33,723 nucleotides of DNA from Candidatus Marinamargulisbacteria bacterium (GTDB taxonomy: Bacteria > Margulisbacteria > Marinamargulisbacteria > SXXA01 > JAHFDB01), in the NCBI GenBank assembly GCA_964202165.1, contig CAXNHA010000003.1:1-33723 (forward strand). Reading direction: 5' to 3'. A model generated the notes under the pieces. That model did not search any database and had not been told where the DNA came from. It saw nothing but the letters and a program-made list of their open reading frames with translations. Positions within the stretch are counted from its first letter, which is position 1, and each line of letters begins with the position of its first letter. Shown one piece after another: positions 3,879 through 25,510 of the stretch. A program made the translations under genes and the position numbers.

Positions 3879-3900
3879 CATAAAAAATCACAAAAAAACT

Positions 3901-3930
3901 TAGACGGCTCTCTCTAGAATATGCTATGCT
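3901..3930 (+). promoter_or_regulatory. Candidate sigma70 promoter for ftsZ
   Basis: TAGACG (3901-3906), 18-nt spacer, TATGCT (3925-3930) preceded by TGn, in the intergenic region upstream of the SD-supported ftsZ start. Confidence 0.3.
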
Positions 3931-3988
3931 CCTGTCCCAAGCTTTTAAGCACAACTTTTTCAAAAAAGTGACAATTGAGGAGTTACCT

Positions 3989-5191
3989 TTGACACAAGAA
4001 AATCTTCGGAATTATGCCAATATAAAAGTGATGGGAATTGGGGGTGGAGGCGGAAATGCAGTCAATCGCATGATTGCCTCTGGCGTCAAAGGGGTAGAAT
4101 TCTGGACCATTAATACCGACTTGCAATCTCTCAACGTATCGCTATCAGACAATAAACTCCAAATAGGTGCCAAGCTCACAAAAGGACTTGGGGGTGGTGC
4201 AATTCCCATGGTGGGAGAACAGGCTGCAAAAGAGAGCAAAGAAGATATAGAGGCCGCTCTAGAAGGCTCAGACATGGTGTTTGTCACAGCAGGTATGGGG
4301 GGAGGAACAGGGACTGGTGCTGCTCCGGTTGTTGCAAAAATTGCCAAAGAATTGGGCGCTCTTACCATTGGCGTTGTCACAAAACCGTTTAAATTTGAAG
4401 GCCCTGTGAGATCGCGTCAAGCAGAAGAAGGTTTGCGAAAACTAAGAGAGCATGTAGATGCTTTGATTATTATCCCCAATGATAAATTGATGAATGTTGT
4501 CGAAAAAATAACCTCTATGTTGGATGCGTTTCGGTTTGCAGATGATGTGTTGAGGCAAGGGGTTCAGGGTATCGCAGATCTTATTACGGTTCCTGGTCTG
4601 ATCAACTTGGACTTTGCTGATGTACGTACCATCATGATGAATTCAGGTTCAGCTATGATGGGGATGGGACGTGCCAGTGGAGAGGACCGTGCGGTTGTTG
4701 CAGCTACACAGGCCATTTCTTCTCCTTTGCTTGAAGAAACCGTATATGGGGCTACAGGGGTGATCCTCAATATTACCGGCAGTGAAAATTTATCTTTACA
4801 CGAAGTGCATGCAGCAGCTGAGGTGATCTACGCAGCGGTTGATCCTGATGCCAATATCCTATTTGGTTCTGTGGTGGATGAACGCCTAGAAAATGAAATT
4901 ATGATTACGGTTATTGCAACTGGGTTTAAAAATCAAGGTCAAGAAAGTAGTATTCTAAAGCGTCAATTGGCTTTTTCAACCTCAGATCAAGTCCTAGATG
5001 AGGACACCATAGAAGAGGATATCGAGTCTGTCTCTCAAAAAGAAGAAAGACGATCGATTGATCAAGCGCCTGTGTCTCCCTCTTCTTCTCTCACCCAAAC
5101 ACCCACCATTCCATCAGAGTCTATCCCTGATTCTCCTCAACAAGAATTTGATTTGGACGTGCCTGCATTTTTGAGAAACCTCAGCAACTAG
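3989..5191 (+). CDS. ftsZ: Cell division protein FtsZ
   Basis: [23 protein letters not shown] tubulin signature, INLDFAD, C-terminal LDVPAFLR. Start placed at TTG 3989 because GAGGAG lies at 3977-3982 (ORF track gives 3926). Confidence 0.98.
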
Positions 5192-5198
5192 TTAGCCA

Positions 5199-5507
5199 AT
5201 GCGATGGTCTTTTTGGCTGGCTATTGTTTTTGTCTTTTCTTTTTTTACTACCTGTAGAGCAACTCACATTTTTAAAGATATTCCAGCCCAACATTGGGCG
5301 AGGCAATCTGTAGAAAGATTGGATCATCTTGGGATTACCAGTGGCTACCAAGATGGGACATTTCGGGGTCGAAAATCGCTTTCTAGGTATGAATTGGCCT
5401 TGTATTTGTCCAATCTCGAACACATACAGAGTAAGCAATTGGCCCAACTTTATCAAAAAATTCAAGATCTTCAGTCAGAAATCAATCACTTAAAATCACA
5501 TCCATGA
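5199..5507 (+). CDS. Secreted S-layer homology (SLH) domain protein with short coiled coil
   Basis: Signal peptide, then FKDIPAQHWA...LGITSGYQDGTFRGRKSLSRYELA (SLH consensus), then heptad LYQKIQDLQSEINHL. Confidence 0.85.
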   Translation: MRWSFWLAIVFVFSFFTTCRATHIFKDIPAQHWARQSVERLDHLGITSGYQDGTFRGRKSLSRYELALYLSNLEHIQSKQLAQLYQKIQDLQSEINHLKSHP

Positions 5508-6691
5508 CAGATTCTTTTGAAGAATGGCTCCATCAAAAAACCCATTCCCTATCGGATCCATCTCTCAGACGAACCTTGCACCCTATTTGCCATCAACAAG
5601 GGTCTCTTATTCGTCTCAATGACACCTCTTATATATCGTTTACTTCCAACGATTATCTTGGATTGTCGCAACACGAAGATGTGTTGCAATCCTATCGTGA
5701 CGGCATTGCCAGATGGGGGGCGGGATCCGGCGGTTCGCGTGTTTTGGGTGGCGATCGGGAGGTGTTTCATATCTTGGAATCAAGACTGGCCTCTCTTACC
5801 GGCCAAGAATCGGCCTTGGTATTTAACAGTGGTTATCAAGCCAATGTGGGTATTGTGTCGGCATTGCTTACAGAAAAAGATGTGATTTATGCAGATAAAA
5901 AAATCCATGCCAGTATCTTGGATGGTGCAAGACTATCCAAAGCAAAGTTGTACCGATTTGCTCACCACAATACAACCCATCTCAAAGAGATACTTACAAA
6001 AACAAGGGATCTCTATGCCAATGCCCTTATTGTCACCGAGTCTGTGTTTAGCATGGATGGCGATTTTTGTGATATTCAAGAGCTTGTTCATCTAAAAGAG
6101 GCGTTTCAAACATGGCTCATGATTGACGAAGCCCATGCATTTGGGATTTATGGCAAGCGGTATCAGGGTAGAATAGACTGCACCCAATGGGCAAAATCTG
6201 TCGACGTGACAGTGGGTGCTTTTGGAAAAGCTGTTGGTACCTGCGGGGGATTTGTATCTGGAACAAGGCTTCTCAAAGAATGGCTTATTCAAGCTTGCCG
6301 GAGTTTTTTGTTTTCCACTGCGTATTGCCCAGCCATTGCCGCTGCAACACTGACGAGCTTGGATATCCTTGCACCAGGAGACTTGCAAGGGCAGTTGGCG
6401 ATAAGAGTAGCCTCGTTCAAAGAACAACTCACCCTAAACAAAATCCCATTCTTAGGTCAATCTCATATCATTGGGGTTGTGATAGGGGATGAGCAAGAGG
6501 CCATGGATGTTGCACAGTATTTTCAAAACAATGGGCTTTGGGTACAAGCCATCCGACATCCTACAGTTGCCAAGGGGGAAGCGCGCTTGCGTTTGGTTAT
6601 TACAGCCATGCATACCCAAGATATGATAGATCGGCTCATAACGATTTTATGTTCACCCTATGTTCGTGAAAAAATTCGTTTCATTGCATAA
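5504..6691 (+). CDS. bioF: 8-amino-7-oxononanoate synthase
   Basis: SNDYLGL, GSGGSR, SGYQAN, HASILDG, ESVFSMDGD, DEAH, FGKA (PLP lysine), IRHPTV..GEARLR. Confidence 0.88.
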   Translation: MTDSFEEWLHQKTHSLSDPSLRRTLHPICHQQGSLIRLNDTSYISFTSNDYLGLSQHEDVLQSYRDGIARWGAGSGGSRVLGGDREVFHILESRLASLTGQESALVFNSGYQANVGIVSALLTEKDVIYADKKIHASILDGARLSKAKLYRFAHHNTTHLKEILTKTRDLYANALIVTESVFSMDGDFCDIQELVHLKEAFQTWLMIDEAHAFGIYGKRYQGRIDCTQWAKSVDVTVGAFGKAVGTCGGFVSGTRLLKEWLIQACRSFLFSTAYCPAIAAATLTSLDILAPGDLQGQLAIRVASFKEQLTLNKIPFLGQSHIIGVVIGDEQEAMDVAQYFQNNGLWVQAIRHPTVAKGEARLRLVITAMHTQDMIDRLITILCSPYVREKIRFIA

Positions 6692-6750
6692 ATTTTCATG
6701 CAAGTTTAAACAAAAACCCCACGATAGTCTCTGTATAAAAAGAGATTATC

Positions 6751-7377
6751 ATGCCAAACACATCTTTATTTTTTTATAGCCGACACCTTCTTCTCCTAGG
6801 GATGGTGCTCTATTGCGCCACTTTTCTTGTTGCAGAAGACTTGGTCATTCTAAAAAACGGGCAACCCGCTATCACCAACAATGGTGCCGGCATACCCGAG
6901 TATGCAAGCCCCACGACACTCGCTCAAGATGCCCTTTCTGGTTTACCTGACATTTATGTACGTTCTTATTCTTTTAGAGGCACACTCACTTCCATGGAAA
7001 CACTGATTGCAAACGGTTTGAACACAGCGGATCAAGGGAATACCTTGCAAGAGCTCAAAGTGCTCGGTAGCCCTCTGTGTTATCCAAGCCCTTTTAGGCC
7101 TGCGTATGGCACAGAGCTTCGTTTTACCATGAACCGTGATGCGGAAGTGCAGATTAGAATTTATGACATGGCAGCAACTCAAGTGTATCAAGGAAATTTT
7201 CCAAAAGGGGGGGTGTTTAGCCCCTCTCCATCAGATCGTCTGGGTGTACTTGGCATCAATAGCCTCAAAATTAGCCAAGCGTTGTTGGGGTCCGATATGT
7301 CAGCAGGTGTCTATTTTGTGTTGATCATGAGCGATGGAAAAATATTGGCAAAAACAAAAGTGGCGGTCATACCATGA
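6751..7377 (+). CDS. Small secreted protein with T9SS type A sorting domain-like C-terminus
   Basis: Signal peptide. YPSPF...VQIRIYDMAA...MSAGVYFVLI...KTKVAVIP resembles the Por secretion tail (YPNP...IYD..G...GVYF...K). Confidence 0.7.
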   Translation: MPNTSLFFYSRHLLLLGMVLYCATFLVAEDLVILKNGQPAITNNGAGIPEYASPTTLAQDALSGLPDIYVRSYSFRGTLTSMETLIANGLNTADQGNTLQELKVLGSPLCYPSPFRPAYGTELRFTMNRDAEVQIRIYDMAATQVYQGNFPKGGVFSPSPSDRLGVLGINSLKISQALLGSDMSAGVYFVLIMSDGKILAKTKVAVIP

Positions 7378-8429
7378 GATACTTTATTCTTATCTATCTA
7401 TTTCTGTTTTGCTTGAGCGGGACTGCATTGGCTCAAGCCAATTACTTTTCCCCCGCTGACATTGGGACAGCCGCTGGGACCATTGCAAAAGGAAACATCG
7501 TGGGATTTAGCAAGTTATCCAACTCTGTTTTTGACAATCCAGCTGCATTGTATCGGGTTGGAAAATTATCAGCCTCTGTTTTTGCTACCACGTTTATGGA
7601 GGAAGTGGATTATAAGAGCCTATCTGTTGCCATGCGAACCCCCATCGGGGTCATAGGATTGGGATATATGTCTGCAGGGGTTGTTGGCATTCCTAAAACA
7701 GCCAAACATATCTACAACTCTGATCCATCTGGACAAGACTATGATTTTGTTCAAATTGATACCTATTCTTACCAAAACACAATGATTAAAGCAGCCTATG
7801 AATGGTCTCAAAATAAACTGTTACACTGGGGCTTTGCTGCTACGTACTACAATACTGTTGTGGATACCTATGTCGCCAGCGGGATCAATGCAGATGTTGG
7901 ACTATCCATTGATTTTGGTAGCTTAAATGCCAGCATCGTACTGCGCAACATTATTCCTGGCCTAAAAATGCAATACCGCTCAACAACAACATCCAAAAAA
8001 CCATCTGACAATGTGGTCCAAGATCCCAGCAATCAATATGCAAATGAGGTTGTTCCGGTTAATCCAAACGATTCTTCCAAGGGATATTATGATGATTATG
8101 GAACACAAACAGAAAAGCTCCCCCTAGAAACGATTTATGGGGTACAATACCGCTGGACAGATTTTAAGTTTTTGGGACAAGTTCATATGTCTGATACCAA
8201 TCGAAATCTATTAAAATCTTTTGGGATGTCTTATCGACCCTCTCTTTTATCGCTCGTTGAGTTTTCAGGAGGCTATCGAGATTTTTTGGCCGGCAAAGAT
8301 GTAAAATCTAGCATAACCGTAGGATTGGGACTGAACTTGGCAGGAATAAATTTTGATTATGCTTATGAAACCAGCTCCCACCCTCAATACAATGGAAAAC
8401 ATTATTTTTCATTGGGACTTTCTTTGTAA
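7374..8429 (+). CDS. PorV/PorQ-like outer-membrane beta-barrel protein
   Basis: Signal peptide, N-terminal SVFDNPAAL, amphipathic strands, C-terminal FDYAY...HYFSLGLSL. ATGA overlap with the CTD-like gene. Confidence 0.65.
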   Translation: MRYFILIYLFLFCLSGTALAQANYFSPADIGTAAGTIAKGNIVGFSKLSNSVFDNPAALYRVGKLSASVFATTFMEEVDYKSLSVAMRTPIGVIGLGYMSAGVVGIPKTAKHIYNSDPSGQDYDFVQIDTYSYQNTMIKAAYEWSQNKLLHWGFAATYYNTVVDTYVASGINADVGLSIDFGSLNASIVLRNIIPGLKMQYRSTTTSKKPSDNVVQDPSNQYANEVVPVNPNDSSKGYYDDYGTQTEKLPLETIYGVQYRWTDFKFLGQVHMSDTNRNLLKSFGMSYRPSLLSLVEFSGGYRDFLAGKDVKSSITVGLGLNLAGINFDYAYETSSHPQYNGKHYFSLGLSL

Positions 8430-8446
8430 CCATGAATTGATTTGTT

Positions 8447-11400
8447 ATGAATACAACACCTACCTTATATCGCTTATTTTGCAAAAAAATAACCCTGTTT
8501 CTGTTTGGATTGGGGCTTGTTTTTTTTCAGGCTACGCTTGCTCATGGGGTAACCATGAATATCCAAGATACCTACTACTCAAAGACGCAAGATAAATATC
8601 TAAATGGCACTTACTCCGGTGTGGTTTTTAAATTAAAAACAGCAACCGCTATCCTCTTTGAAACCACAATCCCCCAAGTTACGTTTACCAATGGATATTT
8701 TGAGATTTCTGTCAGTGTCAATGCCACCTTGTTTAACCGTACGTTGCCCATTGAAGCCGTCCTTACTGTACAGGGAGAGTCTATGTCTTTCCCGTTGCTA
8801 TCCGTCCCATACGCCATTCGATCAACTGTAGCTGAACTAGCCCGCAGTATCCCTATATCTGCTATAAAAGGGTCTTTTGCGACCGTTAACGTTAAGAATG
8901 GCATTTCTGTTCGCAACCTTCAGAATAAAAGTGTCTTTATTGCCAAAAAAAACACCTCTGTTGGCATCTTAAATGGAGCACCTGCTTTTTCATTGGATAT
9001 TAGAGGGACTGTCAATGCAACCAACTTGCTTGTAAACAAGGGGGATATTCGCACCATTTTTTCCTGGAAGGCTGACGCGACCAATCCAAATAACATCTAC
9101 TTTAAAGGCGGGTTTGTTGGCATCAATACCAACAACCCTTTTTTTGGACTTCATGTTGATGGAACAATCAATGCCTCGACTTATCTGATCAATGGACAAA
9201 AACTCAGCAACTCTTTGGATTGGAAAAGGAACCCCACAATTACGCCCAATGTTTACTACCAAGATCTTGAGGCATTTGTGGGTATTGGTACAGCTGTGCC
9301 AAAAGAAAAAGTAGATGTTGTTGGGGGGCTCAAACTAAGTATTCCGAAAGGCATCGCAAATACAGTTGGCACCATTCAATGGACAGGCTCTGTTTTTAAG
9401 GGGTATCTTCTTCTACCTGATAATGCAATTCCCACATGGCGGGTATTTCCGGGGATAAATGGATCGGGAAATACCAACAAAGTAGCCTTATGGAGCGGTC
9501 AAGATCTATTCGCTTTTCCCAACAACCTTTCCTATTCAAGTTTGCTACGCATGGATCCTACTGCCAATGCTATCGGTATCGGTGGGCTTGGCACCTCAAA
9601 GCTTGATATTTTTGGGACTCAACTGGGTCGAAACCTCCTGTCTGTGATTGGCAGTCAAGCTGAACCCTCTCTTGTTGTTTTGCCAGAGGGAAATATAGGC
9701 ATCGGTGTTCAAACACCTGCCTACAAACTTCAGATAGCAGGGGTCTTGGATGCCCAAGATTTTACAGTCAATGGAGAAATTTTACGGCTTACCTATTCTG
9801 TGAATGATATTTGGACACGACGCCCTTCTTCTCGCAGCATCTACTATCTTCTGAATAACATTGGTATTGGTCGTCCCGATCCTAAGAATCTATTGGAGAT
9901 TGCTCAGCCAACGGGAGTGCCTACCCAAAATCCTGCCATCACATTTACCAACACATCCACCTTGGTCTCTTATACACTAGGCGTAGATACCCACTCAAAA
10001 AACACATTTAGAATTGAGAAGGGTATTGCCCTTGGGCAATCAAAGCCTCTTTTTGTGGCACAAGAAGGTCGGTTTGGGGTGGGTACAGATCCCCCAAAAG
10101 CCAACCTCCATGTAAGTGGCAATGAAGGGATTGTTTTTTCTGGTACATTTTTACCCTTGGGCACCACATCCAACTATCTTCCTGTCTCGGGACCTGGCAC
10201 ACGTTTGTTGTGGTATCCTCCCCGATCCGCTCTTAGAATAGGCACCGTCTCTACTGCAAATTGGAACTTTAACAATCAAGGTCTATACACCGTTGGAATG
10301 GGTCTCAATCCCTTGGTAGAAGGAAACCTAAGCGTTGCTATGGGTGGTGCACAAAACCAGGTAACGGGGGTATATGCCTCTAGTGTTGGGGGATTTAACA
10401 ATCAGGCTCAAGGTGATTTTTCTTTGGCATTGGGTCGCAACACACAGGCCCTTCATCATGGCACATGGGTATGGGCAGACAACCAGAACTCTCCTATTGG
10501 CTCTGTGGGAGAAAACCAAGTAATTTTACGTGCATCTGGTGGCGTTGCAATAGGGACATCCAATATCCAACAAACGGGACTGACCTTATCACGATCTGCA
10601 CCAACTGGAAGTATCTTGTCATTGGTTGGAAATGAGACCGTGTCTTTTCAGGTGAGCTCAAACGGACTCATTAGAATAGGCTCATCACCTATATCTTCGC
10701 CATCTACAGGACCCCCTACCAAGTTGTCTGTATTGGGAGATACGGGACTTGGGACACTGGCATCCTATGGCATGCTCGGCATTCAACCTGCATCCACATT
10801 TGACACGGTCATGATGATTATTGGCAATCAAGGTGTTGCAACTCCTGCCATGATGGTGACCAAAGAGTTGGGTGTGTATATCGGCACAACACCTTCTTTT
10901 AGATTTGTTGATCTAGAACATCCAGATTTGCAAACCAATGGATTTATTCGAGTGGCGAGTGGCAGTGTACTCGCAGATTCTTATACATTTCCAGACGGGC
11001 AACAATTATCTGGCGATCCTCCAAATTATGTTTGGCAATACCGCAACACCACTCCCAATATCTATTTTGTATCCGGAAATGTGGGTATTGGCACAACAAC
11101 CCCTAGACATTTGCTCCATTTATCTAATATGGGAAGCTTGGCATTTGAACCTCCCGGGTTATCTCCTCTCATTACCATCAATTTGGACGACCAGGATCTC
11201 TATACATTCGGCATTTCACGTACGATTCCGGATCGGTTGATCATACAACCTAGTACGATGAATGCAGTAAATAGTCCTTTTTCTGTATGGGGTAACCGTG
11301 TGGGTATTGGGACTGTTTTCCCAAAAGTCGCATTACATGTATCTGGCGATGTGTTTGTAGCCTCTCGGATTCGTGTTGGAACACCCGCCAACGCAAGTAG

Positions 11401-14400
11401 CCTATCTGTCAGCGGGTCCATTGCCAGCAACAAATTCTTTATCAAAGGATCCGTTATTGCCCCCGGAGGTACGCCTTGGTCCTCTTTTATATCCCCATCC
11501 AGACTCTATTATGATACGGTGTTAGACCCCGCAAAAAACCTCTATAGTTTTGTGGGTATTGGAACCCAAATACCCCGCTCAGCACTGCATGTCGCAGGCA
11601 CGCTTCGTTTGCTTGGAGATACTGAAAATTTGCCATTTCTGCGCATATCCAAGGAACTCTATGGCAACACGGTATCGCAAAACGAGGTGGCATTAAAAGA
11701 CACCTCAGGATCTATCTATTCTAGCTTATACGTTACTGGCAACAGACTTTTTCTTAAGGGATCTATTGTATGGTCTATATCGGATGTATTTTCAAAAGGG
11801 GCTGGACAGTATGGCAACATTGCCTTGTGGGTGCCCCTTGCCGATCAAACAACTTCCTATACCTTGGGAGACTCCGCATTAATCTGGGATTCTAGACAAG
11901 GAAGCAATCCAGGCAAATTGTTGTTTGAAGGGGATATTCTAAGCGATATTACCAAAACAACCCCTTCTTCTTTTTTGATCACCAATACCACCCGGATTGG
12001 AAATCCGACGTTGCTCAATGTGATAGATGTGCAATCGTCCATCGATCATAATGGTGCGCTGAGTAATTCCAAATCACATTCTGGGAAACGCGTTATGCTC
12101 ACCTATGACAAAGATACCGAGGGAGGACAGTCAGAGGGTGTATCCATTACCCTACGTCAACCCCCCAATGCTTCTTTTACTGCGGGCGCTCAAGCCATTG
12201 GACTGTCTGTAGATTCATCAGGTGTAGCTGTGCAGTCTTTTGGAGATAAAGGTCTCAACACAGCTGCTGTTTTTTTGGGAAAAGTAGGGATTAACACCAT
12301 GACGCCCAGTGCAGACTTAGATGTAAGAGGGTCTATATTGGCCAAGTTTTTTACCATCTCCAGACAACTCACCATGTCCACGCTCAATGTGACCAACAGC
12401 CTTAGCATTATGTCTCAAAACAGAGTCGGCATTGGCACCACAACGCCAAAAACAGATTTGGAAATTGTGAATAGCATGCAAACAAACTCTCTGATCGCAA
12501 GCGGGATCCATACCGAATCCCTCACCGTAGCCCCAGCATTTTTTTCTGTGAATAATTTTCGAGTCGGCATTGGCACCACAACGCCGGTTGCCCAACTTCA
12601 TATTTCAAGATCGTTTTTGGATATTCTTCCTACCGAATTTTCTTTTCAAAATCTTGGGGTTAGCATCAATATTGCAACTGCTCTTCAAAATTGTTTTGGG
12701 CTTGATATTGCTATTCGATCTGCATCGCCAGCAGGTCTATTTCCTCTGCCAAACAATTATCTAGGTAGTTTTGATGGCACCTCAAAAGAAGCAAAGGGGA
12801 TTGCCATCTCCTTAAAAAACATCATTGCCGACCAACCCTTCCGTGAGATCACCGGACTGTCCATCACCCTGCCTAAACAGAGCACCCAAAACGCAGCCAT
12901 TTTTAGGGGAGGCTTTGTTGGCATTGGCGTCTCAGATCCTCAGACAGAATTGGATGTAGCAGGCACCGTATCCGTGGATTACTTCAAAAACAAATTATCC
13001 AGTACACTTAGTAGCGGGGCTTTTGACTTTTTAGAGGTGAGATCCTCTACTCAAAATCTGAGGGTTACAGGGCCCGTTGTGATGGAAAACGCAACAGTAA
13101 AAGATTTGATCCAACAACAATTATCCGTCAAAAAAATCCTTTATTTTAAAGACAAAAGTCTCAGTATCAACTCTGCTCTTTTGTCGGGCAGAGGCAATAT
13201 CGTCTCTACCTTGTCAGCCCAATCGATGCAAGTGAGCACAGATATCGCTGTAAGAGGCCCAGCCCAGCTTCTTTCTCTTTCCTCTGGAAAAGATGCATTT
13301 GCCCCTATTGGGGTTGCTATTATTGGAAAAACACAGGTGGCGTCGGTTTCTGTATCAGAGGCTCTGTTTGCAAATACTGTATCGATCAATGCTCTCTTTG
13401 TGATGAACAAAGACAGAAAATTAGGCATCGGCACCACAGCCCCTCGCTATGGTATTGATATTCAGATACCGCCCAGCCTCACCCCTATAATAGGCACGCC
13501 CATTCTTTTTGAGGCAAACAACAACGAGTCCTGGAATGCCATCCGAATCAGCCAATCCCAAGGGAACGCCGTGGGTCTCTTGGCAGTATCTGACACCGAT
13601 AGTGGTTTTACCTCAGGATCCGGGGTGGTGGCCATAAAAACAGGCAACTCAAGCTCGGCACTGTCTTTTTTGTCTGATCCAGACTCTGGCCCACCGGCAG
13701 AACATATGCGCATTACATCCTCTGGAAATGTGGGCATCGACACCTCATCTCCGCAGTCCAAACTAGATATTAATGGGGATACAATTGTGCGTGAATCTGG
13801 ATCTGTCAGCAACCCTGTATCAGTCAAAACGGTCTCAAGTCCCGCGGGACTATCGTTGCTTTCTTCGCTCATTCTTCCCACTGATTCTAGTGTAACAGGG
13901 TACGGTGCGTCCGAGCAGTCGATCGAGTTGCGTCCTACAACCCCCGATGTTGCGGCAACAGGAATCCTCTCTCTGTTTGTAAGAGAAAAAGACAACAGCC
14001 TCTATTTTCAAACCCTTTCATCAAGCGGTCACTCTGTATCCGAAAATTTGAGCATACCCATTACCTCCTCAGCATGGGGACTGGCCACCTATAGTACAAA
14101 AAATCGCTTGGCAAGTGCCAAATCACTCCAATGGGTACCTTCTACCACCTCTCCCAATATTCTAAAAGTCAATTCTCTTGTGTCATTGATGGGAGGACCC
14201 GGTACTGCATCTGGCAAAAACAATGCCGTATCCAGTGCTCTTTATATGACCATCAATGACCGGACAAAACCCAGTACCGCACGGTTTACTGGCACTACCA
14301 TTGTGCTTGGCAATAGCCAAGCAGGCCCCCTCCCTTATGTGGGTACTAATCAAACAGCAGTGGGCATTGGCGTCGATATGGATAGGCTAAAAGAAGCCGG

Positions 14401-17400
14401 TACCACTAGCCAAGGGCTCTCTACTCTATCCAAAAAAATTGCGGCCGTCTTTTTATCTGGCAGTCAAACCAGTGGCAATGTCGGTATTGCCACCAGTCCC
14501 AATAGCACATCTGTTATGGATCCCATGGCAGCCTTGCATGTGCGATCCGACAGTCCTACCCAATCGTTGTTTTTGCTGCAGGCCCAAGATACAACGGGAA
14601 AAAAAGACCCATTGCTTATCGTACTTCCTACTGGAAATGTTGGCATTGGTACCGCCACTCCCGGCTCTAAATTGTCCATTTTATCTGCTGATACGACCCA
14701 ATCTTCTTTGGCATTTTTGGTACTTAACAATCAAGAAAAACCCCTTTTTGCCCTCACCAATGAGGGTCAACTGGGCATTGGAAGGCTAAAACCCGCTGCG
14801 GGGCTTCAGTTAACGGGAACCCTGAGATCCACGACGTTTCACTCCCATACCTTGAGCCTTCCCTCTTTACGATTGGGGGATTATTTTTCGGTAGATGCAT
14901 CAGGCATTGGCATGGGGATATATCCTCCCAAAGCAGATTGGCATATCATTCGGTCTTTTGTACGCCCTTCCAAGGCTGTTTTTTTGGAAAAAATAGCCCT
15001 GGCAATTCCTGCAAATACGGGGATCAATGCCAACATAGCAGGCCTCCAATATGCTACAAAATCCAAGTTGGCCAACACATTTGGATCTCTTCAAAATACA
15101 CCAATCGACAATCGAGGCATGGGAATATCACTAGAAAAAATGGAGCTGGCTCCAAATGGGATTCTCACCGGACTTTATGTCACCGTTTCTGCTAACAATA
15201 GCCAAAATGAAAACCCAAGATGGACAGCTGCTTACTTAGGTGGGGGGAAAGTAGGTATCGGCACAAGTACGCCGGAGATGACGTTGGATATCAATGGGGA
15301 TTTGCGTGCACGATCTATCTATGCCGACAATTCTCTTTTTAATGTACCCACCGCCAAGCTAATCTCTATGGCTGTACGCAAAAACGCCCCTTTTTTAGGG
15401 GATGCTTATGTCTCTGGCAATGTGTTAACTGTTTCAAAAATATTGTCCATTGAGAATACCACATCGCTCACACTCTTGTTTTCCGACCCTACCCATAAAA
15501 TACTTGAAAGCAACCAGTTGCTTCGGGCTATAGATGCAACAGTGCCGGCCTTATCCGTTGGGGTGGTGGGTCGACCTCAAGATCAATTTCCTCCTGATAC
15601 TTCGAGACGCTTGTATACAAAAGGGGATGTAAAAATAACAAACGGCAAGTTTGATGCAGGCCTAGCTCTGTCTCGGTTAAATCTGCTAAACAGCATAAAT
15701 GCCCCTCTTTACCTCCAAGCTAGTAATATTGTGGTTGACCGCTCTTTGCGAGGAGATATTGTGATGTTAACTCCCTTTGAGATGAACGCTGTAGACCCTC
15801 TTTTTGGAGCCGTGTATACCAGCACCGCAATTGAGACTCCAGATGAATGGATGTATAAGTCATCTGCAACAGAGATAAAAGACAAGGATGGTAAGATTAT
15901 TAATCCTGGAATCAACATCTCTAAAACAATCAAAGTTCCTACATCCAACGAAGGTGCATTGCCCTTCTTTTCTCCTGAATATGCCAACAACATTCATCCT
16001 ATTACAGGTCTGTCGTGGCTTGCATCAACGAGCTCACGCACCGCCTCCATTCTGTCTATCAAAAGCGATGAAAATGCCACAGATCATGTTGCTGGATTAG
16101 ACCTCATTGATTTTATTGGTCTTCAACGCGTGAATACCCATGTCGCCCATACGCTTCACATGGGATTTAACAACCGTATCGCCAAAACCAATTCTACCTT
16201 CAAGGGTCTGTCTATCTTGTTGCAATCAAACAGCAATGTTCCCCTATCAAACAGCGATACTGCGATAGGCCTAACGGTAGATATGTCCAAGCTGCCAAAT
16301 CGTGGGTCTACACAATTGCCTATCGAAGAAGATAAGCCTCTCAACGGTCAACGATACGCTGCATTTTTCTTGTCAGGAAAAGATGTGCCAGGCAATGTCA
16401 TGATTGGACCGGCACGTAAAAATCCTTCTGCAAATCTTCATGTTGTTGCCGGATCTACAGCACCTGCTTTGTGGATAGACAGTCTCACGACGCCCCATAT
16501 TCTTTCTGTGACCGCTACCGGCAGTGTTGGCATTGGTACAACAGCCAATAGCACCCTCACACTAGAAGGCCCCCTCCGTATTGCAACGGATACGAGCCTT
16601 CTGTTTGTTGCAACCACCAATCAGAGAGTTGGCATTGGCACCCCCACACCAGACAGCACCCTTACCCTTGTGAATAACACATCTACCCTCTTGTCTTTAT
16701 CTGCTCAGGCAATGCCTGCCCGTTTTGTGGTGGATGCAGCGGGTAGCATGGGGATAGGGGTGTCGGCTCCCCTCGCCCGAGCTCATCTCAGTGCACCGCC
16801 ATCTTCTCTTCAATCTAATCTCACGGCCACAGTCAGGTACAATAATGTGGATTCTACGCCTATCAGTAAGTTAGGCTTTACTCAGCAAAATGGTTATCTA
16901 GTCGATCAGCAGGGCAATCAACAAGTTATTACGCGGAACAACGGGCAAGGTAATCTCGAACAACTTTATATCGGTATCGTGAAGGTGAATGATACATACT
17001 ATTATTACGGCTCCAAATATGCTGTAAACACCTCTACACCTGAGGAAGAATCCGTACCACTCAACGTACCTCTTTTGCTCGCAATAGGCACAAAAAACAG
17101 CACTATCGAGGTGCCCTTTAGGATATCGGCATCCGGTAATATTGGGATTACCACACCCGTTGCTAGAAGCACATCCTATGCCCCCCCATCTTTGGGTTAT
17201 TCACTCTCTGTCAGCAAGAATGTATTGTCTGGATCTTCTTCTTCGCTGAAGTCAATACGTGCCTTGAATACCTATCAAGGATTTGTTGCAGCACAAAATC
17301 AAGACTTTTTATGGACAGGTCTCAATACTACAAAACCCACTATCTTGTTTGGAAAAACAAGCGCAGATCCCTCTTCTTTTGCAATTGTACAAGGTAAAAA

Positions 17401-19915
17401 TTCCACCGAAATCATGCGGTTGACAGGCACAGGCATTGGACTTGGCACCTCCTCTCCAGAAGCCATGCTCCACGTACGAGGATCGTCATCTGTGCCTATT
17501 TTTGCGATAGACAAGGCAAACAACACCCCTATCCTCACTGTGGATGCATCTGGACAAATAGGTATCCAAAATAAAACGCCTCATGCCTCATTGGATGTGA
17601 GTGGCAATCTCGGTATTAGCCGCTTGGTAAATGCTGTCGATACAGGCACCTCGCTCACTGGAAAAACCATGACCCTTAAGAATATAAAACAAACTCGTAA
17701 CAACAACGCCATTTATTCAAGACTCACCTATGACGGGACTCAACTCGCTCAATTGGTTGGCAACAACATTGAGGTAAGGCTGGGAGAAGACCGATCAAAA
17801 AATGTTGTGGGGCTGCAAATCACCATCAACGCAAAACCTGCTAATACTCACAAAGTGAGGGGCATCCATGTTGCCATTTCTCCTAGCTACAATATACACA
17901 ATTACGCAGCAACAGGGGTGGATGGCAAGGTGAGTGCAGCCTTGTTTTTGGGAGGTGCAGTTAAGATTGGGCGTAGTACCCGCATTCCTCCAAGCCTACT
18001 CGAGGTATCCACCATACTGGATGCCGCCAACCTCAATTACAATATCGCTTACTTTGAAAGCCAACTCGGTACCAATCCTGTGAATAGATGGCGGATACGT
18101 TATATCCCAACCCAATCTATCACGACCAGCCTAAACCCTTTGAGTCTATACCGTTCCTCTGCAGGCAAACAAACTCAGGCCACGTCGTTTTCTTCATATG
18201 TTACTCCTGCTCAGTCATTGACAATTGACACCCATATCGGACAGCTTTCTACCATCTACCGTCCAGATCGCGACGACGACCTTAGGGCTACGGGATCTGT
18301 GTTTATAGCAACCAGTCCAGAAAAAGATTGGGAGACAGGCACACCCATCAACAGGGTAGGATTTGGATTTGATAAACCTGAGGATATGACATATCTCGAT
18401 ACAACCCTGGTGGTAGCTGGCAATGTCAAGATAGGGGCGACCTCCAATGCCACTTTTCTCGCTTCCTCTGGATACGGATCCCGGCTGTATTTTTCAGGAG
18501 CACCTCCAGTGGCTTACAATACCGATGGTGAGAATGGAGACAAACTCTGGATGGCACGCTACAACGTATCAGATGCTGTCTCAGAGTTGAGAATAGGGCT
18601 CAGCGATAGCAATATGCAAGATAACCCTGGTGCCTATTTTTCTGTTTATTCCGTTACACCAAATTATCTACCCCTTGTATCTATCGTCCCTGCTATTAAA
18701 ATTGGGGTCTCTGGCTATCACACCAGTACACTTGTAGATGCCCTCCTGCTCAATCCTTTGGCAACAGCACCGTATCTTCCCCGTGGGGTCATGGGTATTA
18801 ACGTCGCAAATCCTATGGCCCCCCTCCATGTCAGTGGATCCGTGAGGGTGGATACACATAAAACTGGTCTGACTGTTGCGACTCATAATACCGCCATCGC
18901 CATCATTGGCCCTTCTGTTGAAGATAGCAACTATGTGACTTTTTTGTATAAGCCAAGCGCCTCTACCGCGCTGACTGCCGCACAAGGTATAGCGGGTGAG
19001 ATCCAGTATTTTACCCCTGTGCGAGGCATCAGCACAATCAATATTAATGGCACCTCTTATACCCCCACACGTTCCAATCTTGTATTTGCCTTTTCTACAA
19101 CAATTAATGTCGTGGCGGCAGGCGGTGGCGTAAATCGTATTGTCGCCATTGTAGGCCCTTATTCAATAACGGCACGTATTTGCACATGGAATGGGACAAC
19201 CCTTTCCAAAGGAAAGATCGTCAACGCTCCTATAGGGGGTGCTGTTCTCACCACGTTTAATTTTAACGGCACCGTTCAACGGGTAACAGTCAATGCGATC
19301 TCTTCTGGACTTCCGGGAGTTAGGTATCTCTCCAGTGCCGGAGACTATGCCGAACACCTCCAAAAATTAGATCCGGACGAATCCATTGGGGCAGGTGATG
19401 TGGTGGGTGTATGCAATGGAAAAATTACAAAAAACACCCGACAAGCTCAACAAATCATGGTCATCAGTACCTCCCCCATTGTACAAGGAAACTGGAAAGA
19501 CAAAGATAAGACACGCTTGCCGGTAGCATTTTTGGGTCAAGTCCCTGTACGGGTACGAGGCCCTGTACGATCAGGGGATATCCTCATCGCATCTGAGGAT
19601 ATGGACGGCACGGCTATAGCTGTACCGATACACGAGATCACCTCTCATCAACTGACGCGCATTGTAGGGCGTGCTTGGGAAAGCACAGAAAACCGTACCA
19701 TTAGCCTCATCCATACCCTTGTGGGCATGCCTCTACAATCCCATGTTTTGGCAACAAAATGGGCACGGTTGCGTCAGATGATGGCCTCGCTAAAAGAAGA
19801 CTCTACCTGGGTATCTGATTTGCAGACACAGTACACATCCATTCTTTCTGCCCAAAAAGAGATGCTCGATAGGCTCAAAAAGAAAGTCCAAGATGTCCAC
19901 ATTGATACCCCTTAA
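8447..19915 (+). CDS. Giant (3822 aa) secreted tail-fibre-like adhesin with GxVGIGTxxP repeats and C-terminal peptidase G2-like autocleaving chaperone
   Basis: Uninterrupted 11.4-kb ORF. Signal peptide, N-terminal NGYF...SVPYA motif, about 30 VGIG(T)xxP repeats, DYAE...GDVVGV...VIST.P...VAFLGQVPVRV.GPV..GD...IVGRA domain, terminal coiled coil. Confidence 0.85.
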   Translation: MNTTPTLYRLFCKKITLFLFGLGLVFFQATLAHGVTMNIQDTYYSKTQDKYLNGTYSGVVFKLKTATAILFETTIPQVTFTNGYFEISVSVNATLFNRTLPIEAVLTVQGESMSFPLLSVPYAIRSTVAELARSIPISAIKGSFATVNVKNGISVRNLQNKSVFIAKKNTSVGILNGAPAFSLDIRGTVNATNLLVNKGDIRTIFSWKADATNPNNIYFKGGFVGINTNNPFFGLHVDGTINASTYLINGQKLSNSLDWKRNPTITPNVYYQDLEAFVGIGTAVPKEKVDVVGGLKLSIPKGIANTVGTIQWTGSVFKGYLLLPDNAIPTWRVFPGINGSGNTNKVALWSGQDLFAFPNNLSYSSLLRMDPTANAIGIGGLGTSKLDIFGTQLGRNLLSVIGSQAEPSLVVLPEGNIGIGVQTPAYKLQIAGVLDAQDFTVNGEILRLTYSVNDIWTRRPSSRSIYYLLNNIGIGRPDPKNLLEIAQPTGVPTQNPAITFTNTSTLVSYTLGVDTHSKNTFRIEKGIALGQSKPLFVAQEGRFGVGTDPPKANLHVSGNEGIVFSGTFLPLGTTSNYLPVSGPGTRLLWYPPRSALRIGTVSTANWNFNNQGLYTVGMGLNPLVEGNLSVAMGGAQNQVTGVYASSVGGFNNQAQGDFSLALGRNTQALHHGTWVWADNQNSPIGSVGENQVILRASGGVAIGTSNIQQTGLTLSRSAPTGSILSLVGNETVSFQVSSNGLIRIGSSPISSPSTGPPTKLSVLGDTGLGTLASYGMLGIQPASTFDTVMMIIGNQGVATPAMMVTKELGVYIGTTPSFRFVDLEHPDLQTNGFIRVASGSVLADSYTFPDGQQLSGDPPNYVWQYRNTTPNIYFVSGNVGIGTTTPRHLLHLSNMGSLAFEPPGLSPLITINLDDQDLYTFGISRTIPDRLIIQPSTMNAVNSPFSVWGNRVGIGTVFPKVALHVSGDVFVASRIRVGTPANASSLSVSGSIASNKFFIKGSVIAPGGTPWSSFISPSRLYYDTVLDPAKNLYSFVGIGTQIPRSALHVAGTLRLLGDTENLPFLRISKELYGNTVSQNEVALKDTSGSIYSSLYVTGNRLFLKGSIVWSISDVFSKGAGQYGNIALWVPLADQTTSYTLGDSALIWDSRQGSNPGKLLFEGDILSDITKTTPSSFLITNTTRIGNPTLLNVIDVQSSIDHNGALSNSKSHSGKRVMLTYDKDTEGGQSEGVSITLRQPPNASFTAGAQAIGLSVDSSGVAVQSFGDKGLNTAAVFLGKVGINTMTPSADLDVRGSILAKFFTISRQLTMSTLNVTNSLSIMSQNRVGIGTTTPKTDLEIVNSMQTNSLIASGIHTESLTVAPAFFSVNNFRVGIGTTTPVAQLHISRSFLDILPTEFSFQNLGVSINIATALQNCFGLDIAIRSASPAGLFPLPNNYLGSFDGTSKEAKGIAISLKNIIADQPFREITGLSITLPKQSTQNAAIFRGGFVGIGVSDPQTELDVAGTVSVDYFKNKLSSTLSSGAFDFLEVRSSTQNLRVTGPVVMENATVKDLIQQQLSVKKILYFKDKSLSINSALLSGRGNIVSTLSAQSMQVSTDIAVRGPAQLLSLSSGKDAFAPIGVAIIGKTQVASVSVSEALFANTVSINALFVMNKDRKLGIGTTAPRYGIDIQIPPSLTPIIGTPILFEANNNESWNAIRISQSQGNAVGLLAVSDTDSGFTSGSGVVAIKTGNSSSALSFLSDPDSGPPAEHMRITSSGNVGIDTSSPQSKLDINGDTIVRESGSVSNPVSVKTVSSPAGLSLLSSLILPTDSSVTGYGASEQSIELRPTTPDVAATGILSLFVREKDNSLYFQTLSSSGHSVSENLSIPITSSAWGLATYSTKNRLASAKSLQWVPSTTSPNILKVNSLVSLMGGPGTASGKNNAVSSALYMTINDRTKPSTARFTGTTIVLGNSQAGPLPYVGTNQTAVGIGVDMDRLKEAGTTSQGLSTLSKKIAAVFLSGSQTSGNVGIATSPNSTSVMDPMAALHVRSDSPTQSLFLLQAQDTTGKKDPLLIVLPTGNVGIGTATPGSKLSILSADTTQSSLAFLVLNNQEKPLFALTNEGQLGIGRLKPAAGLQLTGTLRSTTFHSHTLSLPSLRLGDYFSVDASGIGMGIYPPKADWHIIRSFVRPSKAVFLEKIALAIPANTGINANIAGLQYATKSKLANTFGSLQNTPIDNRGMGISLEKMELAPNGILTGLYVTVSANNSQNENPRWTAAYLGGGKVGIGTSTPEMTLDINGDLRARSIYADNSLFNVPTAKLISMAVRKNAPFLGDAYVSGNVLTVSKILSIENTTSLTLLFSDPTHKILESNQLLRAIDATVPALSVGVVGRPQDQFPPDTSRRLYTKGDVKITNGKFDAGLALSRLNLLNSINAPLYLQASNIVVDRSLRGDIVMLTPFEMNAVDPLFGAVYTSTAIETPDEWMYKSSATEIKDKDGKIINPGINISKTIKVPTSNEGALPFFSPEYANNIHPITGLSWLASTSSRTASILSIKSDENATDHVAGLDLIDFIGLQRVNTHVAHTLHMGFNNRIAKTNSTFKGLSILLQSNSNVPLSNSDTAIGLTVDMSKLPNRGSTQLPIEEDKPLNGQRYAAFFLSGKDVPGNVMIGPARKNPSANLHVVAGSTAPALWIDSLTTPHILSVTATGSVGIGTTANSTLTLEGPLRIATDTSLLFVATTNQRVGIGTPTPDSTLTLVNNTSTLLSLSAQAMPARFVVDAAGSMGIGVSAPLARAHLSAPPSSLQSNLTATVRYNNVDSTPISKLGFTQQNGYLVDQQGNQQVITRNNGQGNLEQLYIGIVKVNDTYYYYGSKYAVNTSTPEEESVPLNVPLLLAIGTKNSTIEVPFRISASGNIGITTPVARSTSYAPPSLGYSLSVSKNVLSGSSSSLKSIRALNTYQGFVAAQNQDFLWTGLNTTKPTILFGKTSADPSSFAIVQGKNSTEIMRLTGTGIGLGTSSPEAMLHVRGSSSVPIFAIDKANNTPILTVDASGQIGIQNKTPHASLDVSGNLGISRLVNAVDTGTSLTGKTMTLKNIKQTRNNNAIYSRLTYDGTQLAQLVGNNIEVRLGEDRSKNVVGLQITINAKPANTHKVRGIHVAISPSYNIHNYAATGVDGKVSAALFLGGAVKIGRSTRIPPSLLEVSTILDAANLNYNIAYFESQLGTNPVNRWRIRYIPTQSITTSLNPLSLYRSSAGKQTQATSFSSYVTPAQSLTIDTHIGQLSTIYRPDRDDDLRATGSVFIATSPEKDWETGTPINRVGFGFDKPEDMTYLDTTLVVAGNVKIGATSNATFLASSGYGSRLYFSGAPPVAYNTDGENGDKLWMARYNVSDAVSELRIGLSDSNMQDNPGAYFSVYSVTPNYLPLVSIVPAIKIGVSGYHTSTLVDALLLNPLATAPYLPRGVMGINVANPMAPLHVSGSVRVDTHKTGLTVATHNTAIAIIGPSVEDSNYVTFLYKPSASTALTAAQGIAGEIQYFTPVRGISTININGTSYTPTRSNLVFAFSTTINVVAAGGGVNRIVAIVGPYSITARICTWNGTTLSKGKIVNAPIGGAVLTTFNFNGTVQRVTVNAISSGLPGVRYLSSAGDYAEHLQKLDPDESIGAGDVVGVCNGKITKNTRQAQQIMVISTSPIVQGNWKDKDKTRLPVAFLGQVPVRVRGPVRSGDILIASEDMDGTAIAVPIHEITSHQLTRIVGRAWESTENRTISLIHTLVGMPLQSHVLATKWARLRQMMASLKEDSTWVSDLQTQYTSILSAQKEMLDRLKKKVQDVHIDTP
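12423..12585 (+). repeat. Exact 25-bp direct repeat within the fibre gene
   Basis: GAGTCGGCATTGGCACCACAACGCC at 12423-12447 and 12561-12585, offset by 138 bp (46 codons). Both copies lie in RVGIGTTTP. Confidence 0.9.
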
Positions 19916-20471
19916 GACAATAGGTATATTGATAGGGTTACTGCTCATCGGGGTTGTGTCTTTTTTTGTTCGCAACCCTCATGGATTTTCAGCTTCGGCC
20001 ACATCCTCTCAGAGGCCCCCATCTTCACAAGAGTTTTCGTCCAAAAAAACAAGCACTTCTCCAAAAGTCTGGGTACATCTTGCAGGGTGGATTCAGCATC
20101 CAGGCATCTATGCGGTGACGCCAAACCAACGTATTGTCGATGTCTTGTCTGTCGCAGGCGGTGTCCGAGAAGGGGCAAACTTAGACGCCCTCAACTTGGT
20201 AGCACGTGTCAAAGATGGTCAACGCATTCTGGTCAAACCCATACCCTCTCTGGCAAACAAGTCCTCCCTCTCACCATCTCTTATCTGCGTCAATCTCAAT
20301 ACTGCTTCAGAAGAAACCATCGCACAAGTGCCTGGTATGGGCAAAAAAATGGCCACACATATCCTGGCTTATCGCAATAAAAATGGGCGTATCAGTGCTG
20401 AAGATTTTTTAAAAATAAAAGGACTTGGTGGTAAAAAAGGCAAAAAAATCTTAGAGACCGTTTGTTTTTAA
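19893..20471 (+). CDS. comEA: ComEA family DNA-binding/uptake protein (TM + SLBB + HhH)
   Basis: N-terminal TM helix, VHLAGWIQHPGIY...LNLVARVKDGQRI (SLBB), VNLNTAS...VPGMGKKMA..I..YR..NG (HhH). Confidence 0.88.
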   Translation: MSTLIPLKTIGILIGLLLIGVVSFFVRNPHGFSASATSSQRPPSSQEFSSKKTSTSPKVWVHLAGWIQHPGIYAVTPNQRIVDVLSVAGGVREGANLDALNLVARVKDGQRILVKPIPSLANKSSLSPSLICVNLNTASEETIAQVPGMGKKMATHILAYRNKNGRISAEDFLKIKGLGGKKGKKILETVCF

Positions 20472-24518: not shown

Positions 24519-24945
24519 TCGCCACGCTTTTAGAGAGTTGGCCTATCGTGTAGCGGATAGACTCCGTGCAGGGGATTGTCTTTTGTTGGAAGGAGAGTTG
24601 GGCACTGGTAAAACAACGTGGGTAGATGACATGGTCTCCCGGTGGGGATGCCCTGGTGTGGTATCTTCACCTACGTTTCAGTTGGTACACCATTACCCAA
24701 CCCCTATTCCGGTATACCATATGGATTTTTATAGAATTAAGGAAGCCTCTGCATCTGTATTAGATTTAGAATACTATCTCCAGAAAAAGGGTATTCTCCT
24801 GATAGAATGGGGCCAAAATCTAGCACATTTTTTGCCAAAAAAATGCCTGCAAGTGACGTTGTCCTATGGACAAGATCCCGACCATCGGCTTGTAACGATC
24901 GCAGGGTTTGAAAATCAAGAAAGGATTTTATATGATCCGATTTAG
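24487..24945 (+). CDS. tsaE: tRNA threonylcarbamoyladenosine biosynthesis ATPase TsaE
   Basis: LLEGELGTGKTT, SSPTFQLV, HMDFYR, IEW. Confidence 0.93.
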   Translation: MLPSTTVLLTSRHAFRELAYRVADRLRAGDCLLLEGELGTGKTTWVDDMVSRWGCPGVVSSPTFQLVHHYPTPIPVYHMDFYRIKEASASVLDLEYYLQKKGILLIEWGQNLAHFLPKKCLQVTLSYGQDPDHRLVTIAGFENQERILYDPI

Positions 24946-25510
24946 CCTATACATACTGATTGTAATGGGATTTTTAGGGGGGGTATCTTTGGCAGACTCT
25001 ACGGGTAGTTTGATGTGGATATCGTTTGATCAAAAAGAAAGCATCGACCACTCTCTGTCCTTAACACAGGGATTAAGCATCGCGGCCGGTGGCAAATTAT
25101 CTTTATCTGGATATGGGTTTTCTCTTCTTGCACCCCTATCAGAGATTGTATCGATTCAGAATTTAAAACCTGCTTTATCCCCCTCTTCTTTTTTTTCGCG
25201 AGATATCCCAGACAATTTGGTGGGACTTCCGCTTGTTTATCCAAGCCCTGTTCGCATGGGACTGGGAGCTGAGATTGGATATTATCTCAAGACCAACCGT
25301 GCAATCGAAATTCGGGTCTATGACATGGCAGGACAATTGGTTTTTTCAAAACAATGTTTGGCAGGGTTATTGGGAGGACAAAAAGGGTATAACACTGTCC
25401 CACTGTCCAATGAAACTGTTAATTATACCCTGTCTGCAGGGGTGTATTTTGTCTTGGTCATGGCAGATGGAAAAGTACTGGGCAAAACAAAGTTTGCGAT
25501 TATTCCTTAA
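24932..25510 (+). CDS. Small secreted protein with T9SS type A sorting domain-like C-terminus (paralogue of 6751-7377)
   Basis: Signal peptide. YPSPV...IEIRVYDMAGQLV...[29 protein letters not shown] 24932 follows AAAGGA (track start 24908). Confidence 0.7.
   Translation: MIRFSLYILIVMGFLGGVSLADSTGSLMWISFDQKESIDHSLSLTQGLSIAAGGKLSLSGYGFSLLAPLSEIVSIQNLKPALSPSSFFSRDIPDNLVGLPLVYPSPVRMGLGAEIGYYLKTNRAIEIRVYDMAGQLVFSKQCLAGLLGGQKGYNTVPLSNETVNYTLSAGVYFVLVMADGKVLGKTKFAIIP

Follow-up and report, generated by a model that had tools for sequence, protein, structure and literature searches.

How might a secreted fibre of 3822 amino acids (aa) be kept on the cell surface when it carries neither the C-terminal domain (CTD) of a type IX secretion system (T9SS) client nor an autotransporter barrel? 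The question is raised by a DNA stretch of 33,723 nucleotides, here called the window and analysed over its whole length, which is contig CAXNHA010000003.1 (contig C3 of the genome), positions 1-33,723, of Candidatus Marinamargulisbacteria bacterium (GCA_964202165.1; 914 kb, 79 contigs, completeness 64.6%). Three genes follow one another in the window and encode a small secreted protein ending in a CTD, hereafter the adaptor, an outer-membrane beta-barrel and the giant fibre. As read in the sequence, the adaptor stop and the barrel start share ATGA at 7374-7377 and a gap of 17 nt (8430-8446) separates barrel and fibre; this three-gene layout had been given in a preliminary description made from the letters alone and is exact to the base. 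The genome, supposed there to be probably non-Bacteroidota, belongs to the Margulisbacteria, class Marinamargulisbacteria. We find that the trio recurs far beyond chance, with the CTD gene in 26 of 31 related loci, a giant open reading frame (ORF) behind the barrel in 23 of 31, and three copies in this genome. We propose, as a reading with about an even chance of being right, that the N-terminal domain of the fibre is anchored in the outer membrane by adaptor and barrel together, which perhaps serve in addition as an export tag in trans. The features on which the argument draws are the following.

6751..7377, plus strand: the adaptor, a small secreted protein of 208 aa with a leader, a variable N-terminal region of ~75 aa and a C-terminal type-A-like T9SS CTD.
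7060..7374, plus strand: the CTD-like domain of the adaptor (residues ~104-208), delimited by the orthologue alignment and its PxxYPNPF, GVYFY and KGKMAVxP motifs.
7374..8429, plus strand: the PorV/PorQ-like outer-membrane beta-barrel with a predicted FadL fold, 351 aa (NF033709, NF033711, AlphaFold2 model).
8447..19915, plus strand: the giant fibre, a secreted protein of 3822 aa that has phage-tail-fibre-like repeats and lacks a CTD.
8546..8851, plus strand: residues ~34-135 of the fibre, its conserved N-terminal domain (alignments and hidden Markov model), common to fibre-like proteins behind such barrels.
19316..19912, plus strand: the C-terminal ~200 residues of the fibre, a weak intramolecular-chaperone (IMC) match followed by a helical tail (PF11962, phrog_34132).
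24908..25510, plus strand: a second, unlinked adaptor copy of 200 aa behind tsaE, with no adjoining barrel (TIGR04183, 31.5 bits, above cut-off).

Judged by sequence profiles, the C-terminal domain of the adaptor resembles a type-A T9SS CTD. The adaptor matches TIGR04183, the type-A model, with an E-value of 2.3e-4 (21.1 bits, under the cut-off of 23) and with 23.3 bits in a six-frame scan of the genome, where neighbours are included in the frame; Pfam PF18962 is reached at E 0.032 only, and none of the type-B CTD models matches at E<=1. The CTD-like call made earlier for this first gene is borne out by the TIGR04183 match and extends to its family, 23 of 27 adaptor orthologues matching the model at E<=1e-3 (best 4.9e-8). 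In the orthologue alignment the domain closes the proteins with the consensus PLVYPNPFRQ ... SAGVYFY ... KGKMAVxP, which, with its PNPF-type, GxY and terminal K motifs, looks like that of type-A CTDs. Residues P112 and P114 are invariant, and L109, N113, Y125, Y138, G186, Y188 and K203 are kept in at least 90% of the rows. Upstream of the CTD lie a hydrophobic leader and ~75 poorly conserved residues, with no recognisable cargo domain. Among PDB sequences, the adaptor profile meets only the C-terminus of the ice-binding protein 5uyt (E 0.092). The second adaptor copy (24908-25510) shares 39% identity with the first over 105 aa. Two neighbours of genes for t6A tRNA modification were also observed, namely this copy directly behind tsaE and a 283-aa PorV-like barrel directly behind tsaB (contig C15 4610-5461, minus strand), so that each of the two genes adjoins one half of a CTD/barrel pair. 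At two contig ends, C44 1-336 (plus) and C9 25075-25410 (minus), stand 111-aa CTD fragments with identical BLAST statistics against the adaptor, which suggests that a repeated CTD gene broke the assembly.

The second gene encodes what sequence profiles and a structure model identify as a FadL-fold barrel closest to PorV/PorQ. The protein matches NF033709 (PorV/PorQ) at E 3.2e-8 (33.5 bits, under the cut-off of 90) and NF033711 (PorQ) at E 5e-4 (19.2 bits, under the cut-off of 220). Among its orthologues, 13 of 13 match PorQ (best 5.3e-12) and 12 of 13 match NF033709 (best 3.4e-18) at E<=1e-3, and a protein-atlas look-up leads to clusters named PorV/PorQ. The NF033709 cut-off itself is passed by other barrels of the phylum, ten in genome G023, three in G007 and one in G010, and Pfam PorP_SprF gives no barrel match at E<=10. 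The AlphaFold2 model, for which 13 sequences were used (pLDDT 79.6), has the FadL fold, with ~14-16 strands, counted by eye on the secondary-structure line, and N-terminal helices that would, from their inferred position in the model, match the FadL hatch. Foldseek ranks 8gl6_F (E 7e-11) and 6h3i_F (E 2e-9) first and second; chain F of these SprA-PorV entries is presumably PorV, which agrees with its 345-367 residues. VIA-align gives Z 31.5 (rmsd 4.3, 279 aligned) for 8gl6_F and Z 30.9 (rmsd 3.2, 272 aligned) for 6h3i_F, in keeping with the PorV/FadL-like structure expected in the preliminary description.

In the same comparison, the FadL-fold transporters FadL, TodX and CymD score Z 26.6-30.0, nearly tied with PorV, while unrelated barrels stay at or below 17.8. 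The protein might accordingly be read as an ordinary FadL-type importer of hydrophobic compounds whose likeness to PorV has no functional meaning. We regard this as very improbable, for the sequence profiles choose PorQ and PorV/PorQ, not FadL, and the barrel gene is translationally coupled to a CTD-protein gene in 26/31 related loci and in 12/12 of the distant homologues described below.

The third protein begins with a hydrophobic Sec-type leader, read by eye, and its conserved N-terminal domain is followed by a shaft in which a module of the type VGIGT..P...L.V.G occurs 17 times (hidden Markov model). PHROG tail-fibre families match the fibre at E 1e-8 to 4e-8, and the Bdellovibrio-type fibre structure 8ojn is matched weakly (E 0.018). 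At the C-terminus, phrog_34132 matches at E 4e-9 and PF11962, the Peptidase_G2 IMC domain, weakly at E 0.0021, under cut-off. Judging from the tail-fibre-like repeats and the weak IMC match, the fibre would be trimeric. Pfam returned no matches to the adaptor, barrel or fibre as whole proteins; when the fibre was searched against Pfam in eight overlapping segments only sub-threshold matches were obtained, and none was to an autotransporter domain. Scans of the genome with TIGR04183 and the CTD profile found no CTD in the fibre. The earlier picture of a fibre with a signal peptide and with neither a CTD nor an autotransporter barrel therefore agrees with the leader and with both sets of negative searches. 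The C-terminus of the window fibre is 41% identical to that of a fibre paralogue of 3514 aa on contig C1.

Tail-fibre likeness of this kind could also mean that the third gene is a prophage remnant and its neighbours incidental. Besides the PHROG matches, a k-mer search with the fibre N-terminal profile reached 10 proteins, mostly via the shaft repeat, and six of these carry PF13884, Peptidase_S74, which would suit a phage origin. The trio is, however, flanked in the window by ftsZ, an aminotransferase gene, a comEA-like gene, pgi and folP, with no other phage genes in the window, and the fibre has a Sec-type leader and an arrangement kept across a bacterial class. We consider a prophage remnant extremely improbable.

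We turn to how far the arrangement is kept, a survey of synteny having been proposed in the preliminary description. Related loci were found with the barrel profile and taken with 10-kb flanks, by which many downstream ORFs are cut. The 31 loci carry the labels Marinamargulisbacteria (11), Margulisiibacteriota (4), UBP8 (1), plain bacterium (9), Actinomycetota (2), Rickettsiales (3) and Alteromonas (1), the last three labels being taken to be binning errors. In 26 of the 31 the barrel gene comes immediately after a CTD gene, and in 23 of these 26 the two overlap by 4 nt. Directly downstream, 23 of the 31 have a giant ORF (959 to >3331 aa), five end too early and three are without one; the fibre N-domain profile is matched by 19 of the 23 giant ORFs. 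Of 19 genomes of the class, 15 have a close orthologue of the barrel (E<=1e-90); when the whole phylum is taken, 42 of 61 genomes have at least a distant one (E<=1e-25). The genome of the window holds three full trios, on contigs C3, C40 and C31, together with unlinked parts, which are one adaptor (24908-25510), one barrel (C11) and one fibre (the 3514-aa protein on C1). Across five related genomes, a fibre N-domain gene lies directly behind 14 of 22 barrels, and 14 of 27 such genes are placed there. In the C40 trio (5523-8410, plus strand) the fibre is short (319 aa) and is followed by two secreted proteins of 200 and 417 aa without a family match, which may be one fibre split into pieces.

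Beyond the class, the CTD and the barrel are found together as a cassette of two genes. All twelve of the distant barrel homologues taken from other classes stand behind a protein of 179-996 aa with a C-terminal CTD-profile match, and only one of these twelve loci (in G013) has the fibre arrangement. Three near-complete genomes contain 12, 15 and 13 CTD-bearing ORFs and 15, 15 and 11 PorV-like NF033709 matches, several of them above cut-off. Read from coordinates, a barrel lies directly downstream of the CTD ORF in 6/12, 7/15 and 7/13 cases (20/40 in total, one pair in G010 being counted on a barrel-profile match rather than on NF033709). ORFs with their own CTD and a downstream PorV-like barrel include some of 3395, 4412, 4747 and 9118 aa. 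The rule in the phylum is that a client bears a CTD and is followed by a PorV-like barrel of its own. In the Marinamargulisbacteria trio one thing is different: the CTD belongs to a small protein encoded separately, and a CTD-less giant protein stands behind the barrel.

Several further loci touch on this cassette. In genome G007 (C1 ~655385-656738, minus strand) a 9118-aa frame with a CTD at its end stands directly before a PorV-like barrel, and the 4412- and 3395-aa ORFs there are alike. Contig C28 of the window's genome carries a 237-aa CTD protein (1808-2521, plus) together with the genome's best PorV/PorQ match, at 75.6 bits (2530-3459, plus); this pair is flanked by ruvX and argS and has no fibre in its vicinity. 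On contig C41 a 1101-aa protein with a CTD-like end (4477-7782, minus) precedes a 770-aa protein (2229-4541, minus), and G010 has a similar pair. The 770-aa protein combines a PorV-like N-terminal barrel part with two C-terminal SLH domains and would thereby join a barrel and a cell-wall tether in one chain.

Given so general a cassette, the adaptor and barrel could be another copy of it, with the adaptor itself as displayed cargo and the fibre co-transcribed with them in a surface-coat operon, physically unlinked and anchored otherwise. The cassette does occur without a fibre, in 11 of the 12 other-class loci and at the ruvX-argS locus on C28. Against this explanation, no cargo domain can be recognised in the ~200-aa adaptors, where just ~75 variable residues precede the CTD; of the 26 loci open to judgement, 23 have the fibre behind the barrel; and the unlinked parts in the genome amount to one adaptor, one barrel and one fibre. 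We hold an independent cassette to be rather unlikely, though the likeliest of the alternatives considered. As for the CTD-PorV pair being a dedicated outer-membrane anchoring or export module, as the preliminary description had it, this remains the best reading for the fibre, but the notion of a stand-alone minimal system does not stand, the pair being one instance of a phylum-wide cassette.

The same description had called for a search of the genome for sprA and porK-N. Component counts were made over genomes of the window's phylum at family cut-offs. No SprA (TIGR04189) passed the cut-off in 81 genomes, nor GldM (TIGR03517) in 61, where one weak match was seen; GldL (TIGR03513) had no match in 31 genomes. 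GldK (TIGR03525) was above cut-off in none of 31, and the weak partial matches in six genomes are read as generic sulfatase-modifying-domain matches; GldN, PorW, PorT and PorZ lay outside the search. PorU (NF033707) was likewise above cut-off in none of 31, and the matches listed, with one exception, are confined to model positions ~830-1095, a C-terminal stretch that takes in the CTD. PF14349 had no match in this genome. For SprA the outcome is less clear-cut than these zeros, as 67 of the 81 genomes have weak TIGR04189 matches at model positions ~560-717, in ORFs of ~800-1880 aa.

In the genome studied here, the ORF with the weak SprA match encodes a predicted outer-membrane protein of 1663 aa, kept throughout the phylum (contig C29 526-5517, plus strand), with a leader and the C-terminal end ...GTLMF. 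A k-mer search gave 44 homologues, all unnamed or 'hypothetical'; a full-length orthologue was present in 20 of 20 genomes fetched, and the nearest atlas cluster is auto-named 'SprA N-terminal domain-containing protein' (score 0.96). A model of the last 1200 residues (pLDDT 79.7) has roughly 35-40 long strands, and the four best Foldseek matches are SprA chains (E 4e-8 to 3e-6, alignments of 1214-1367 columns). The profile of this barrel has no match among PDB sequences, and no T9SS context surrounds its gene, whose neighbours are the housekeeping genes queA, parA and parB. Whether it is a true SprA relative stands at about even. Since SprA is its best fold match, a claim that there is no translocon would be unsafe, and the fibre may be exported through a divergent translocon.

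This large barrel also bears on the possibility that the PorV/PorQ-like barrel is the fibre's own export channel, in a two-partner-like route with the adaptor as plug or pilot. Its gene is tightly coupled to that of the fibre, and no recognised T9SS translocon was found above cut-off. However, the FadL-fold model has ~14-16 strands with hatch-like helices, and a folded fibre, probably a trimer, is much too wide for a FadL-type lumen. The Pfam search found no POTRA-type domain in the barrel, and the conserved giant barrel with SprA as its best fold match is encoded elsewhere in the genome. We judge this route improbable.

The anchor that we favour would work as follows. Adaptor and barrel would form a stable outer-membrane pair in which the barrel holds the CTD, and this CTD is probably never cleaved, because no PorU sortase was found. 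Either the variable N-terminal region of the adaptor or the surface loops of the barrel would hold the conserved, cell-proximal N-terminal domain of the fibre. Export of the fibre may pass the SprA-like barrel, with the adaptor acting as a tag in trans. The polarity is extrapolated from the MAT fibres of Bdellovibrio, in which the N-terminus would likewise be cell-proximal. If the window fibre is oriented in the same way, a C-terminal CTD on it would point in the wrong direction; if the weak IMC-like match is real, the C-terminus would cleave itself and such a CTD would be lost. A more specific version, in which the CTD, a sorting and anchoring domain, acts in trans after moving onto a ~200-aa adaptor that grips the fibre N-domain, takes the fibre through a motor-less SprA-like barrel and is then locked in its own PorV/PorQ-like barrel, is put forward more tentatively and strikes us as possible rather than probable.

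The gene anatomy, the homologies, the barrel fold, the conservation of the trio and the absence of recognisable T9SS motor and sortase genes are established. From these we infer CTD-barrel binding, the adaptor-fibre contact, the surface location and the export route alike. A complex prediction with the barrel, the adaptor and the fibre N-domain, run with the fibre as scored partner and no controls, scored 0.00 and counts neither for nor against contact. A number of results weigh against the anchor reading. The window adaptor and barrel are both under the curated cut-offs in the profile searches of these two proteins, and neither the adaptor profile nor the barrel profile matches a T9SS chain among PDB sequences at E<=1. 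For the 1663-aa barrel, TM-scores to SprA are only 0.16-0.29, and the VIA-align Z for SprA is 12.7 (the longest alignment, 567 residues) against up to 16.1 for small barrels, so that SprA does not stand out. The T9SS models had no above-cut-off match in 14 control genomes, so that the inventory has no positive control. In the five related genomes, 13 of 27 fibre N-domain genes have no adjoining barrel and 8 of 22 barrels no such neighbour, so the link between adaptor/barrel and fibre is not obligatory in cis; the 13 detached genes also speak for the independent cassette. So does the 3514-aa fibre on C1, which has housekeeping-type genes upstream, two of them Nudix- and XerD-like by eye, and no CTD or barrel match beside it.

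A few observations concern the surroundings. Promoter and terminator scans around the trio gave results not better than shuffled sequence. The longest frame of the ComEA-like gene (SLBB plus helix-hairpin-helix; 19893-20471, plus strand) overlaps the last 23 nt of the fibre gene, and its real start is probably further downstream. Between ftsZ and the aminotransferase gene lies a 102-aa protein with a single SLH domain (5199-5507, plus). Elsewhere in the genome, a 1689-aa protein (contig C13 14869-19938, minus) closes with PF00443 (E 4.5e-20), a eukaryote-type ubiquitin C-terminal hydrolase (UCH) domain that may hint at host-associated life. For the Trichoplax symbiont, thin structures that connect the cell with the vacuole membrane are reported (bioRxiv 10.1101/568287).

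The closest known logic is that of the type-B CTD / PorP-SprF pairs, together with the PorQ-PorZ and PorV-PorU pairs. In Bacteroidota, each type-B CTD protein binds a PorP/SprF barrel to which it is genetically linked, and the barrel, by binding the CTD, keeps the protein on the surface (PMC9143113, PMC12618676). The trio resembles SprB-SprF and PG1035-PorP in that the gene of a CTD protein stands beside that of its own small outer-membrane barrel, with many such pairs per genome (PMC9143113, PMC12618676). It differs in that its CTD matches type A (TIGR04183) and sits on a separate ~200-aa protein instead of on the large surface protein, its barrel is PorV/PorQ-like, and no PorKLMN or PorU genes were found, GldN being outside the search. 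In the attachment complex of P. gingivalis, which contains PorQ-PorZ and PorV-PorU, a barrel permanently holds an uncleaved type-A-like CTD partner. The trio is like PorQ-PorZ in joining a PorV/PorQ-family barrel to a CTD partner, the barrels of its orthologues matching PorQ in 13 of 13 cases. PorZ and PorU, however, are large functional proteins whose pairs are single-copy parts of a full T9SS, whereas the pairs seen here are multiplied and that of the window is tied to a fibre gene. The SprA-PorV complex of F. johnsoniae (PDB 6H3I, 8GL6, 8GL8) supplies the best matches for both the small barrel (chain F) and the 1663-aa barrel (chain A). In Bacteroidota, by contrast, a single PorV handles every type-A cargo before PorU releases or cleaves it, and transport needs the GldLM/PorLM motor, which was not above cut-off in the phylum genomes searched.

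The reviews and abstracts consulted place the T9SS, with its motor, ring and outer-membrane parts, in Bacteroidota only. Within a limited text collection, the literature on Margulisbacteria describes no type IX secretion and no such trio, and that on PorV-, PorQ-, SprA- or T9SS-like proteins holds no report for other phyla. Margulisbacteria are sister to Cyanobacteria. A distant phylum would keep only the outer-membrane logic, that is, the tag, the carrier barrel and perhaps the pore, and would have multiplied it to give every client a barrel of its own; in the trio there is the further twist that the tag is detached from its client. If the more specific version above is true, the outer-membrane half of the T9SS can work outside Bacteroidota and their allies, without PorKLMN or PorU. 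The trio is also a compact three-gene module that might be tried for surface display.

The fibre has its own counterpart in the MAT fibres of Bdellovibrio bacteriovorus, whose conserved N-domain, according to Caulton et al. (2024, PMC10769870), probably sits on the cell surface and binds a partner yet to be named. The window fibre resembles them in layout, with a signal peptide, a conserved N-terminal domain and what would be a long tail-fibre-like shaft and a variable or self-cleaving C-terminus. The MAT N-domain, as given there, is beta-rich and of ~130 aa, against ~100 residues in the window fibre, and the two are likened by layout, not by sequence; the window fibre is also three to four times longer, and its C-terminal match is to the Peptidase_G2 IMC domain (weak), not to S74. 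If true, the anchor described here would offer a concrete and testable way in which a bacterial surface may retain phage-like fibres of great length, a question left open for Bdellovibrio by Caulton et al. (PMC10769870), and the more specific version would name the kind of surface partner to which the N-domain of a MAT-type fibre binds.

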